A DNA stretch of 64,000 nucleotides, from NCBI GenBank assembly GCA_963732385.1, contig CAVSZB010000003.1, positions 352,001 through 416,000 on the forward strand, in the 5' to 3' direction. A program made the position numbers and the translations under genes. Source of the DNA: an uncultured bacterium (GTDB lineage: Bacteria > Krumholzibacteriota > Krumholzibacteriia > LZORAL124-64-63). The notes under the pieces were generated by a model, which saw nothing but the letters and a program-made list of their open reading frames with translations, was not told where the DNA came from and searched no databases. Positions 18,775-22,553 of this stretch are shown here, one piece after another; positions within the stretch are counted from its first letter, which is position 1, and each line of letters opens with the position of its first letter.

Positions 18775-18993
18775 GGCCGCCCAGCCAGGGCCCATTTCGG
18801 CCACGCAGTCACATTGCAACCGGGAGGTGGGCCTATCGGAGTTCCTGGCTCCTGACATCGTTATATTCTGAGGCCATATCGCGGACCGTGCTCATTGACT
18901 CGCCTTTCCGCTGCTTCGAGCGGTCCAGCACTTGACACTCGGCTTAGTGAGTCGCTGCGCACTCCCTCAGACTCAAGCGAGGAGACCGGAAGC

Positions 18994-21015
18994 ATGAAAA
19001 AGGTTTTCCTGGGCACCGCCATGTGCGCGTGCCTTCTGATGGCTGGCCTGGCGTCAGCCCAGTTGACCGCCATTGATACGATCCAGACCTACAACCCCGT
19101 CACCGGTGCGCCCACCCCGTTCCCCGTCTCGGGCACCATCGTAACCGTTCAGGGTACTCTTTATGTTCTCAAGGGCAGTTTCAACACCGGTTCCCACTAC
19201 ATCCAGGCTGCCGACGCTGGCATCCAGGTGTTCAACTCCACCCTGAACCTGGGCACGATCGGCGACCTGATCGAGGTCACAGGAGCGGTCGGGGTATTCT
19301 CGAACGAAATCCAGATCACCAACCTGACGAACAACTCGATAATCTCGCATCCGGGCGAGCCGGCCCCGCTCGTCAAGACGATTTCCCAACTGGTGCACTG
19401 GACCGGCGGCGTTCCTCCCAGAGTCAATGACTACGAGAGTGTCGGCAGTTTCGTCCGGGTGACGGGCAACATCGCTACCGCCCCCACGAACAACACCCCG
19501 ACCTCGGACAAGCAGTTCAGCATCATGGCGGACGGCGACACCGTGATCGTTTTCGTCGATAAGGACACCGCCATCGATGTCGGCGCGGTCGCCGTGGGAG
19601 ATCTCTATCAGATCGACGCGGCCTGCGTGCGGTACGGCACAGCGCCGCCCGTGATCGAGCTCAAGCCGCGCTCCCAGAACGACCTGGTCGAAAACCCGGG
19701 GAGTCCGGCTCCCGCCATCGAGAACGTGATCTCTTCGAACTATCATCCGCTGTCGACCACGGCGCTGACCATCAGCGCGGACATCACCAGCGGCGGGGGC
19801 ACGATCAGTGGCGCCACGCTCTACTGGCGCAACAGCGCGGGCGACAGCCTCGGCGCCTACACAGCCACTCCCATGACTTTGGGCACGGCGCCGAAGTACT
19901 CCGGCGTCATCCCGACGCCGCACTCGGGCATCCGGGTGGACTACTACGTCTCGGCGACCGACAACCTGGCGCAGACCACCCTGTCGCCGTCCGCGGCGCC
20001 GACGGCCCACAACGAGCTGGCGGTCGGCTTCACGACGATCCACGACATGCAGTACGTTGACCCGAACGCCGTGAGCCAGTCGTCACCGTACCGCTACAAG
20101 GTCGTCAACCTCGAGGGCATCGTCACCTACGGTACCGGCGAGGCCGGCGCGGTCAGCAAGTTCATCATGGAGACGTCCACGGGCGGCCCGTTCAGCGGCG
20201 CCCTGGTCTACGACGGGACCGGCACCTACGGCGCGGTCTACACGGGGGACCTGGTCCAGGTCGGCGGTCGCATTGACGAGTATCTCGGCTGCACCGAAGT
20301 TCTGCCCTTCCGCAAGCCCGACGGCGTGCTTGCCGGTTCCACCGGCGCTCCGGTCTCCGTGCTCGCCTACAACAGCAAGTTGCCGGCGGCGATGTACGTT
20401 TCGACCCGGGTCCTGGCCGACGGCGTCTCGACCGATGGCAACGGCTACCTGGGCGAGGCCTACGAGACCTGCCGTGTCCGCACGAAGGCCTCGCTGGTGC
20501 TTCCCAACGCCCCTCTTCCCTCCCGCGGTTTCGGGATTACCGACACCGGCGTCCTGGCGGATTCGGTGCGAGTGGTCCCGCTGGTCGACCTCACGTATCC
20601 GCACACCGCGGGTGACTTCGTGGTGGTCGAGGGCTGGATGGATTACAACGGCACGTACATGCTTCGCCCCGTCCGGGACGAGGACATCGCGTACGGCATC
20701 ACCGGCGTCGGCGACACCACGCCGCAGGTGCTGCCCGCGGGCGGTTTTGTCGGCGTGTCTCCGAACCCGTTCAATCCCCGCACGGAGATCGAGTTCGTCC
20801 TGACACGGTCGAATCTGGCCCAGTTGAACATCTACAACCTGCGCGGCCAGCTGGTGCGCTCGTTGGCCAATGGTCACCTGGAAGCCGGGACCTACACGCT
20901 GGTCTGGGACGGGACCGACGAAGCCGGCAACCGCATGGGCAGCGGGACCTTCTTCGCCCGCCTGCGCATCGGCGCCGAGGTCATGCAGGTCCAGAAGCTT
21001 TCGCTCGTGAAGTGA
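18994..21015 (+). CDS. Secreted protein with OB-fold-like repeats and C-terminal FlgD-Ig (PNPFNP) domain
   Basis: Signal peptide MKKVFLGTAMC...ASAQ, repeated 'GD.v.V.G.v' OB-like units, C-terminus SPNPFNPRTEIEF...IYNLRGQLVR...WDGTD..G...GSGTFFARL...KLSLVK. Its current stop TGA is completed by the IS end. Confidence 0.8.
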   Translation: MKKVFLGTAMCACLLMAGLASAQLTAIDTIQTYNPVTGAPTPFPVSGTIVTVQGTLYVLKGSFNTGSHYIQAADAGIQVFNSTLNLGTIGDLIEVTGAVGVFSNEIQITNLTNNSIISHPGEPAPLVKTISQLVHWTGGVPPRVNDYESVGSFVRVTGNIATAPTNNTPTSDKQFSIMADGDTVIVFVDKDTAIDVGAVAVGDLYQIDAACVRYGTAPPVIELKPRSQNDLVENPGSPAPAIENVISSNYHPLSTTALTISADITSGGGTISGATLYWRNSAGDSLGAYTATPMTLGTAPKYSGVIPTPHSGIRVDYYVSATDNLAQTTLSPSAAPTAHNELAVGFTTIHDMQYVDPNAVSQSSPYRYKVVNLEGIVTYGTGEAGAVSKFIMETSTGGPFSGALVYDGTGTYGAVYTGDLVQVGGRIDEYLGCTEVLPFRKPDGVLAGSTGAPVSVLAYNSKLPAAMYVSTRVLADGVSTDGNGYLGEAYETCRVRTKASLVLPNAPLPSRGFGITDTGVLADSVRVVPLVDLTYPHTAGDFVVVEGWMDYNGTYMLRPVRDEDIAYGITGVGDTTPQVLPAGGFVGVSPNPFNPRTEIEFVLTRSNLAQLNIYNLRGQLVRSLANGHLEAGTYTLVWDGTDEAGNRMGSGTFFARLRIGAEVMQVQKLSLVK

Positions 21016-21056
21016 TATGGAACGGCTAGTCAAACGTTGATTAGTGCGCTCCTCGG

Positions 21057-21085
21057 GGGCCCCGGCGACAGCCGGGGCCCTTCTT
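21057..21085. terminator. Terminator-like hairpin inside the IS right end
   Basis: GGGCCCCGGC-GACA-GCCGGGGCCC followed by TTCTT on +. Lies downstream of both the host gene (+) and the IS RNA (-). Confidence 0.6.
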
Positions 21086-21099
21086 ACGCCTGGTTGTTG

Positions 21100-21260
21100 G
21101 GAGCAGGGACTGCAACGACGGTTGATCAGACTGATATCCGCGGGTTGGTTACCGCACACAATTCTGTCCGTCTCGGGGTGACCTCCGTCTAACACCGCGG
21201 GTCCAGCTCATGGCCTGCCGCATACTTCAAACGAGGATTCCCCTGACCGGTCCCTGCTCC
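21100..21260 (-). ncRNA. Putative IS110 bridge/seek RNA
   Basis: Closed by an 11-bp perfect stem (21250-21260 with 21100-21110). Two internal loops: TGAAGTA matches the empty target and ATATCAG matches the circle junction. Confidence 0.8.
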
Positions 21261-21270
21261 ACTCAGCGTC

Positions 21271-22386
21271 CTAGTGTTGCTTCGTGGCTGCGACCCACAT
21301 CGCGGCCCACACGAATCCACTCAGTTCACGGGCCACCGCGACGGCGACCTTGTTGCGATGCTTCGTCTTCTCCAGGTGATGGAATCGCCTGCCGAGTCGA
21401 TGCTGGGCCTTCACGGCGATCGCGACCATTTCAGGATCCTGACCCATCCGGCGGCGATCGAGGATCAAGGTCGAGCCTACCCTGTACTGGTAGTGCCAAG
21501 CGGCTTCGACTAGGATCCGTCTTAGGAATGTGTTGCCCGCCTTGGTGATCGAACCACGATGTTGTTGCTCGCCGCTGGAGTGCTCCTTTGACACCAACCC
21601 CGTGTACCCCATCAGCCGGTCCGGGTGACTGAAGCGACGGATGTCTCCGATCTCGGTGACCAACGTCATCGCCGTCAGGGTCTTGATGCCGCGGAAGCAC
21701 TGCAGCGCCTCGACGGTCGCCCGCCAGGGCTCGCGACAGGACCACTGCTCGATCTCGGCGTCGAGCGACCGCTGCTGAGACTCGAGGTACTCCAGGTGGT
21801 CGAGGTCGTAGGCCAGGACCGTCTGCAGCGGGCCCGTCATCTCGCGGCGCAACGTGGCCAGCCAGGCGCGATGCTGCTTCGTCCAATTGCTTTTGGTCCC
21901 GGTGAAACGATGTCCGTGGGTAGCCAGCACCCGGACGATCCGATGCTTGCTGCGCACGATCTGACGCTGCAGCGACAGTCGGCATCGCACGAGCTGGCGT
22001 ACCGCCTCTTGCTCCTCATCTGGTATCGTCACCGCCCGCAGATGGCCGCTGCGATACATGCGCGCCAAGCGCACGGCATCCAGGCGATCGGTCTTGCGGT
22101 GATCGCCCGGGCAGCGGGGGATCAGACTCGGGGCGATCACCTCGCACTGGAACCCATCGTGGTCCAGGGCCCGCTGCAGGACGTAGCCTGCACCCGAGGC
22201 CTCGTAGCATGCCCGCGGGGAGCCCTGCTTGGTCAAGCGGCGGAAGAGCCGGCGAACCGCGTTGAGGTCCCCTGGCAACCGGACAATCTCCGGGATGTCC
22301 TTGTCTCCAAAGAGGATCGCCGCGGTGATGGACTCCTGGTGAACATCCATGCCCACCCAAACGGTCGCTGTGCTATCGTGTGTCAT
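21271..22386 (-). CDS. IS110 family transposase/recombinase
   Basis: RuvC-like DEDD (GMDVH, CYEAS, KTDRLDA), C-terminal domain EIGDIRRF...YTGLVSKEHSSGE...GSITKAGN...LVEAAW, AVAREL. ORF intact. Confidence 0.95.
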   Translation of the reverse strand: MTHDSTATVWVGMDVHQESITAAILFGDKDIPEIVRLPGDLNAVRRLFRRLTKQGSPRACYEASGAGYVLQRALDHDGFQCEVIAPSLIPRCPGDHRKTDRLDAVRLARMYRSGHLRAVTIPDEEQEAVRQLVRCRLSLQRQIVRSKHRIVRVLATHGHRFTGTKSNWTKQHRAWLATLRREMTGPLQTVLAYDLDHLEYLESQQRSLDAEIEQWSCREPWRATVEALQCFRGIKTLTAMTLVTEIGDIRRFSHPDRLMGYTGLVSKEHSSGEQQHRGSITKAGNTFLRRILVEAAWHYQYRVGSTLILDRRRMGQDPEMVAIAVKAQHRLGRRFHHLEKTKHRNKVAVAVARELSGFVWAAMWVAATKQH

Positions 22387-22515
22387 GGCTGGGTCCTTTC
22401 GTGAGCGGGAGTTTCGGCTCCCTAGTGTCCCTGGTCCGTGCGGACTAACACACGATACCCGAGGGGCCCAGCCGTTCCATTATGTCTAGCGCATTCCGCG
22501 CACGGAAAACGCAGG

Positions 22516-22553
22516 GCGACCCCGGGGGCTTCGGCTCCCGGGGTCGCGTCTTT
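22516..22553. terminator. Bidirectional intrinsic terminator (original terminator of the FlgD-Ig gene)
   Basis: GCGACCCCGGGGGC-TTCG-GCTCCCGGGGTCGC with a cUUCGg loop and short T runs on both strands, between convergent genes. Confidence 0.7.

Follow-up and report, generated by a model that had tools for sequence, protein, structure and literature searches.

The window, a stretch of 64,000 nucleotides from an uncultured Krumholzibacteriota bacterium, contains an insertion sequence at the end of a host gene. The features are listed in Table 1. The element is 1474 bp long, plus one shared base (the T found at both 21013 and 22487 of the + strand). Three copies are present in the genome, with no differences between them, and all lie in one orientation relative to the target. 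The empty allele is also represented. Briefly, in contigs from three of four public runs (X1, X2, and X4), position 21011/21012 is joined to 22487. At the X1 joint, exactly one letter is assignable to either side and, in runs X2 and X4, a synonymous base difference adjoins the joint. Because of these contigs, the element ends, and the single shared base, count as observed. Together, the three identical copies and the empty allele uphold the ends used in the first-pass annotation of this DNA. They also show that insertion was site-specific, in a single orientation, and without target duplication, as for the IS110 family. Note that duplications are described as uncharacteristic of these families, in the sections of the source available (PMC11187229). 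The circle joint was not among contigs from the four runs examined, which is uninformative as to its absence. One contig from run X3 is without the whole transposase gene (window positions 21265-22460) and keeps both ends and the RNA region. This is a possible non-autonomous mini-element. The genome also has two further, different, IS110-family transposases (L005, on contig C5, and L006, on contig C6); the C6 copy is 42% identical.

Table 1. Features of the insertion sequence, and of its host gene, in window coordinates.
Feature	Position	Strand	Remarks
Host gene, 706 aa, ends ...KLSLVK	18895..21015	+	FlgD-Ig/T9SS-like C-terminal domain, PF13860
IS110-family, IS1111-type insertion sequence	21013..22487	-	Three identical copies; empty allele in X1, X2, X4
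Right sub-terminal inverted repeat	21017..21027	.	Perfect 11 bp, 3 bases in from end
-35-like hexamer TTGACT	21028..21033	-	17 nt from CATAAT (22479-22484) when ends are joined
G+C-rich hairpin, right end	21057..21080	+	42 bases past new stop, then short T-rich run
Predicted bridge RNA	21100..21260	-	Closing stem around target-binding and donor-binding internal loops
Second donor guide (RDG, 21131-21137) and handshake base 21130	21129..21137	-	7/7 to donor 8-14
First donor guide (LDG)	21157..21165	-	Family register: guide 3-6 (21163-21160) versus donor 3-6
Second target guide (RTG, 21189-21195) and handshake bases (21187-21188)	21187..21195	-	Covariation at target 10-12 only
First target guide (LTG)	21223..21229	-	Same sequence as target positions 4-10; covariation at 4-8, 10
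DEDD recombinase/transposase, 371 aa	21271..22386	-	PF01548 and PF02371; NF033542
Left sub-terminal inverted repeat	22470..22480	.	7 bases in from end, shared base counted
Original host stop TAG, displaced by insertion	22487..22489	+	Empty allele

The transposase matches NF033542 with a score of 239 bits, where the cut-off is 140. Residues D14, E62, D100, D103, and S271 are invariant in 20 homologues. The RuvC-like DEDD domain (PF01548), together with PF02371 and its catalytic serine, places the protein in the IS110 family. The layout of the element is that of the IS1111 group. The sub-terminal inverted repeats (11 bp perfect, or 13 bp with one mismatch) have the 7/3 spacing of this group, and there are 258 non-coding bases 3' of the transposase gene compared to 101 bases 5'. 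The IS1111 motif GL-P----SG reads GLVSKEHSSG here, with the proline present in most relatives. At 371 residues, the protein is also longer than the 330-350 residues given for IS1111 transposases in the available part of PMC11187229. When the ends are joined, in a computed junction, a promoter-like TTGACT-17-CATAAT arrangement arises. It arises only then, and a promoter scan called none in the linear element. Among relatives, TTGAC is present in 79 of 85, and a match of at least 4/6 to TATAAT in 52 of 85. We suggest that the joined ends form a candidate promoter.

The first-pass annotation had described a bridge or seek RNA, downstream of the transposase gene, with separate target and donor loops within an 11-bp closing stem. 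The stem is found on the minus strand (21250-21260/21100-21110). The proposed guide motifs are also at the sites claimed on that strand: TGAAGTA at 21223-21229, GTGTTA at 21190-21195, ATATCAG at 21131-21137, and TGTGTG at 21155-21160. The folding energy of the region from 21100 to 21260 is -72.1 kcal/mol (z -2.32) and 4 of 200 shuffles were equally good. Among 5000 dinucleotide shuffles, chance 7-mer matches arose to the target junction in 263, to the donor junction in 400, and to both in 15. One sequence alone is weak evidence for guides.

Relatives of the element provide a broader view. Across the phylum, 40 of 208 genomes have a match at E<=1e-60, and scans for relatives covered 80 genome and 80 metagenome loci. 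Closer relatives include members of the Krumholzibacteriota, Eisenbacteria, Latescibacterota, Bacteroidota, and Ignavibacteriota, and a group with 44-49% identity is from the Gemmatimonadota. There were 152 loci at >=54.5% identity. A complete RNA was parsed in 126 of these (102 distinct) and the other 26 are without a parsed full RNA. We counted base pairs in 50 sequences. Six helices and two internal loops are conserved, with 91% of cells paired and two-sided changes in 21 of 34 pairs. None of 500 shuffles scored as high. Slid controls were 40-52% paired, although the tested structure was drawn from the window sequence, a bias in its favour over these controls. RNAalifold found the structure in part and did not recover the inner helices of the donor loop. 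Helices were therefore tested by pair counting instead and, by this measure, the donor-loop helices are 95-98% paired. No Rfam family reached its gathering score between 20900 and 22700, where four weak matches were at chance level. In one relative (L075), an internal deletion in the 3' region removes the second half of the target loop, and the donor loop is kept. We conclude that the proposal of a bridge RNA, with separate target and donor loops, is supported; both the fold and, as described below, the guides covary across relatives. The region is thus a predicted bridge RNA, and would extend a known class by one member.

The first-pass annotation missed the target. The element inserts at stop codons of genes with a FlgD-Ig/T9SS-like C-terminal domain, a large family encoding secreted proteins. 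All three copies in the genome are exactly at the stop of genes ending ...(S/T)LVK, and the element end gives an in-frame TGA. In the window, the present stop of the host gene (TGA, 21013-21015) is supplied in this way. At the end of a fourth such gene are 12 bases of the right end, beyond which similarity is lost (L004:1559-1570; G000:C3 near 169062). A copy was probably deleted here, leaving its new stop behind. About 27 bases past the displaced original stop is a strong hairpin (window 22516-22547), which is probably the terminator of the host gene, or of a convergent kinase gene. The right end of the element has its own hairpin, and one with an energy of -12 kcal/mol or lower is present in 49 of 92 relatives. 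That this might be a substitute terminator for the host gene stays a lead only, since a terminator scan did not call it.

Related elements use the same type of target. The clade provides 88 distinct sites, with a target triplet of TAG in 48 cases, TAA in 16, TGA in 13, another triplet in 2, and unknown in 9. Put another way, it is a stop at 77 of the 79 sites with a right flank, with L074 and L077 being the exceptions. At least 90 open codons, in the frame of the stop, precede 52 of the 62 sites with at least 300 nt of flank; the other two frames gave 21 and 3. Upstream frames were also scanned for domains, leaving out 20 of the 88 sites that had fewer than 40 open codons. FlgD_ig, Por_Secre_tail, or CHU_C was detected at E<=0.01 in 60 of the 68 scanned, with 54 above the Pfam cut-off, and 8 were without such a domain. 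Note that the left flank of L035 was parsed wrongly, and this site is scored as a miss in the guide, open-frame, and Pfam tallies. Four elements (L044, L133, L167, and L039) are at stops of proteins ending in a WGxxKxxYR-like motif. This is a second repeated C-terminal signal, for which no Pfam match was found in the two frames scanned. In the Gemmatimonadota group (L082-L119), inspected by eye, targets include what we take to be attC-like ends (...ACGT-TAG) and repeats resembling IS ends. The L092 target is presumably the end of a gene reading ...DPMRALKTE.

The donor triplet is also a stop in 88 of 88 cases (TGA 66, TAG 21, and TAA 1), a result that is partly built in, since the end-search pattern admitted only TAA, TAG, TGA, or TGG. 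We did not adopt the idea that the donor end had evolved into a stop. In a sister group that shares RNA fold, layout, and donor end, TGA is the donor end at 26 of 27 sites, and these are mostly not gene ends; a long frame ends at the site in 3 of 26. Since the sister group likewise has TGA, the donor stop is a pre-existing feature and, as far as shown, a pre-adaptation.

To describe the guides, we numbered DNA positions as for IS621 (PMC11208158), so that the shared T is position 9 on the host-sense strand. The LTG spells the last base of the Val codon context, the Lys codon, and the first two bases of the stop. At positions 4-8, Watson-Crick matches number 77, 53, 80, 81, and 60 of 84, where permutation gave 72, 29, 58, 51, and 36. 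Position 10 matches in 81 of 81 (57 by permutation). In other registers there are, at most, small excesses over permutation. We then used 36 independent, non-overlapping pairs from a tree of 73 complete elements. These contain 67 differences in the LTG, 52 of which are accompanied by a target change and 39 of which are fully compensated. The background is 16 target changes at 149 unchanged guide positions. Changes between Lys and Arg, and between TA and TG, recur in the guides on several separate branches of the tree. Hence, TGAAGTA is supported as a predicted guide to one target strand, as first proposed, with covariation at positions 4-8 and 10.

Three loci have an LTG that mismatches its own site (L025, L146, and L147). 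The first 12 bases of the left flank are near-identical in L025 and L147, two distant elements, and have no LTG match. These flanks are possibly the end of another mobile element abutting the right end. Run X2 contains a near-identical copy of the window element, with 15 differences and none in the guides. This copy flanks a TGA site, and its guides keep TA, so position 10 is not obligatory. An extended LTG, reading further upstream codons, was considered and rejected; guide bases 1-2 match target positions 2-3 in 8 and 24 of 84 cases, at or below chance.

For the RTG, matches at target positions 10-12 number 79, 69, and 36 of 81, and 23 of 50 changes are compensated in the 36 pairs. Positions 13-14 do not covary (2 of 37 compensated). 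The reading of GTGTTA as the second target guide is thus supported for positions 10-12, and not for the outer two bases. The target-loop guides therefore covary with both target strands. The handshake bases of this loop match the donor side after strand exchange, an effect that is weak after tree correction (1 of 13). Reprogrammability, also raised in the first-pass annotation, is seen only as natural retargeting among relatives.

We consider it likely that this is an element steered by a bridge RNA to the stop codons of a gene family, and made harmless by rebuilding of the stop. In this scheme, joining of the ends would generate a promoter, allowing transcription of the transposase gene and the RNA. 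The target loop would pair with both strands of the codon-codon-stop site, at the 3' end of genes encoding FlgD-Ig/T9SS-like domains, and the donor loop with the joined element ends. The host-sense strand would be cut after T9 and exchanged, a step that is modelled on IS621 and fitted by the junction sequences. The T of the host stop would then join the GA (or AG) of the right end, creating an in-frame TGA (or TAG). Because the stop is rebuilt in this way, the protein would be unchanged. With some 90 members in each genome, the gene family would offer many harmless places to land. Most of the pattern would be explained by a short guide (about 7+3 bases) and by loss of insertions inside genes.

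The genome contains 90 frames ending in a FlgD-Ig/T9SS-like C-terminal domain and 164 empty sites that match the guides (TGAAR-TAR). Using a crude gene caller, covering 79%, the latter were classed as 8 family stops, 6 other stops, 111 intragenic sites, and 39 uncalled. With 164 matching sites left empty, 8 of them at family gene ends, the guide alone cannot explain the family bias. Much of the bias is accounted for by loss of disruptive insertions. A second layer of recognition might also exist, by which true family gene ends are preferred beyond the guide. The bias would then be mechanistic, and not mainly due to selection, with upstream codons read by the protein, the downstream hairpin, or transcription state as cues. 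Such a layer is suggested by the guide-matching stops of other genes, which nearly equal the empty family stops in this genome (6 and 8, respectively), yet all 4 events here, and 60 of the 68 scanned in relatives, struck the family. There is a parallel in ISPpu10, for which specificity is raised by a target stem-loop (10.64898/2026.03.19.712850, available part). However, family and other stops were compared in a single genome and, if gene stops alone count as harmless, 4 of 4 events against 12 of 18 is no surprise. Furthermore, guide bases 1-2 and target positions 2-3 show no covariation, and the sites of L044, L133, and L167 end in ...ALYR instead. We regard a second layer as doubtful, and favour a short guide coupled with loss of disruptive insertions.

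The junctions bear on where strands are exchanged. T9 is shared without exception (85 of 85, at the junction whose T was not fixed by the search pattern). Position 8 is C in the donor, and G, A, or T at the left junction in 68 of 79 sites; the right junction keeps the donor-type C8 in 78 of 79. Donor and target have the same base at position 8 in 11 of 79 cases and at position 10 in 16 of 79. Hence, there is no identical core dinucleotide and, unlike in IS621, T9 alone is shared. That donor and target share one base, as previously claimed, is borne out by the empty allele and by these counts. The cores then proposed, CA for the donor and TA for the target, require revision, since IS621 numbering gives CT and GT/AT. 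We place the core at positions 8-9 (CT in the donor; GT, AT, or CT in the target) because T9 is invariant, an invariant guide G is opposite C8, and the handshake is at target position 7. For the latter, base 21130 of the donor loop matches in 76 of 84 cases (53 expected) with 3 of 5 changes compensated.

As the first-pass annotation implied, the true core could instead lie at positions 9-10, reading TA in the target and TG in the donor, with cuts placed symmetrically about it. Indeed, position 10 is covered by, and covaries with, both target guides (81/81 and 79/81), one base beyond the LTG of IS621. Conversely, the 8-9 register of IS621 accommodates the invariant T9, the invariant G of the guide that faces donor C8, and the handshake covariation at target 7. 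In addition, T9 is where every junction changes from target to donor sequence, and position 10 differs in 63 of 79 sites. A 9-10 core is thus unlikely. Every junction is as expected if the host-sense strand was exchanged after T9. Since C8 is kept at the right junction, although the left junction varies, the product of one strand alone is seen. We infer a cut after T9 on the host-sense strand, followed by exchange. Note that a one-base stagger, or selection, could yield the same junction picture. Top-strand-dominant insertion by CazIS110-1 is in line with these junctions (10.1101/2025.10.25.684509), and so is single-strand excision reported for IS621 (10.64898/2026.08.31.748434), as far as the available parts of these sources go.

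In the donor loop, ATATCAG was originally read as a guide to the circle junction. This is supported by the RDG, which in the window element matches donor 8-14 throughout. Across relatives, the RDG matches donor positions 10 and 11 in 92 of 92 and 91 of 92 cases, and 8 of 8 independent changes are compensated. The best register for the LDG, from a register scan, gives matches at donor 3-6 in 43, 60, 70, and 62 of 85. Here, 9 of 33 changes are compensated, versus 2 of 21 in the register of the first-pass annotation. TGTGTG, as then drawn, is one base off the family register and its last G (21155) is the first G of the proposed GCGG stem. In the window element itself, the LDG matches at 2 of 4 family positions. 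Donor-loop guides therefore covary with both donor sides family-wide, with the LDG weak in the window element.

A further possibility is that the target loop alone works, as a short seekRNA. The donor loop would be partly vestigial, and the ends read mainly by the protein via the inverted repeats. This would account for the poor LDG match, and a short target-only form is the main RNA that co-purifies in the ISEc11, ISPa11, and ISKpn4 systems, according to the available sections of PMC11187229. It would not account for the RDG, which tracks the donor end without exception in independent changes, nor for the LDG, which covaries family-wide. Moreover, the donor-loop handshake covaries with the target and, as noted, the helices of this loop are 95-98% paired. 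We consider loss of donor-loop function quite improbable. Finally, single 7-mer matches in 5-8% of shuffles, and no Rfam family at threshold, might suggest that the guide matches are chance and the region only a terminator-rich spacer; this is refuted by structure and guide covariation in 50-102 relatives, with register controls and tree correction. The first-pass annotation had reasoned that, for a bridge RNA, loops should covary with the target of each element. They do so for both targets and donors (39 of 67 LTG, and 8 of 8 RDG, changes compensated), and the bridge RNA reading is upheld.

Our comparisons with known systems draw on the available sections of the reports cited. The window element shares sub-terminal inverted repeats with 7/3-base extensions, and a long 3' non-coding region, with ISEc11, ISPa11, and ISKpn4 of the IS1111 group. 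Also shared are a promoter-like junction, natural retargeting, absence of target duplication, and a guide complementary to the tnp-sense strand that comes first (PMC11187229). In the window element, the top-strand match precedes the bottom-strand match. The targets differ, being REPs, attC sites, transposon ends, and a short linear site for the known elements, versus the stop codon of a protein family here (PMC11187229). Right-end bridge RNAs have been predicted for 93% of IS1111 elements, with ISCARN28 modelled (PMC11208160, Fig. 6d). The nearest named relative is an ISSfr2-family transposase (42.6% identity over 96%, thus <45%), and the 3' region of this relative, by eye, has the same RNA motifs in the same order. 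ISCARN28 stands beside ISEc45 and ISSfr2 in the source data, as ISfinder names. We found no report of stop-codon targets for ISSfr2, ISEc45, or ISCARN28 in the literature searched.

IS621 and ISCro4 (PDB 8wt6 and 9t56) are distant in protein similarity (E 3e-7). Nevertheless, as in the window element, their active site combines DEDD and serine, and the two loops carry four guides. The second guides, of 7 bases, likewise end in G opposite C8, T9 is invariant, the donor core is CT, and handshake bases are present (PMC11208158). By contrast, the IS621 RNA is 5' of tnp, rather than 3', donor and target of IS621 share CT, rather than T alone, and the LTG described here extends to position 10, one base further than that of IS621 (PMC11208158). 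IS900, of the IS110 family, is reported to target translation initiation signals (title of Doran et al. 1997, cited in PMC8141618). Like the window element, it aims at a gene-boundary signal, albeit the start region rather than the stop codon, and is the nearest precedent. In a literature search, with subscription papers, ISfinder, and TnCentral largely outside its scope, we found no IS110/IS1111 stop-codon targeting, no description of this clade, and no natural one-base core. Since this RNA type is already known for the subgroup (ISEc11, and as predicted for ISCARN28), as well as for IS621, the bridge RNA is less novel than the first-pass annotation took it to be. Of the two findings, the stop-codon target has the greater novelty.

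For IS110/IS1111 elements, the targets known so far have mainly been REPs, attC sites, and transposon ends. RNA-guided transposition would gain a further target class here, namely the ends of the coding regions in a family of paralogues, where insertion would be harmless via a rebuilt stop. The clade is also a natural mutagenesis set; around 80 trios of guide, target, and donor can yield position-by-position rules for an IS1111-type bridge RNA. These rules include reading of position 10 by the LTG, and a single base in common between donor and target. Consequently, the need for a matching core in bridge recombination, and insertion mainly by one strand, become testable. It is possible, and we propose tentatively, that a widespread clade uses a protein-level signal, the last codons and stop of a secretion-sorting domain, as its landing site, with guides tracking codon and stop choice, gene-end recognition beyond the guide, and recombination of one strand at a single base pair. 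If true, one-strand, one-base exchange rebuilds the stop, and bridge editing would no longer be bound to matching cores.
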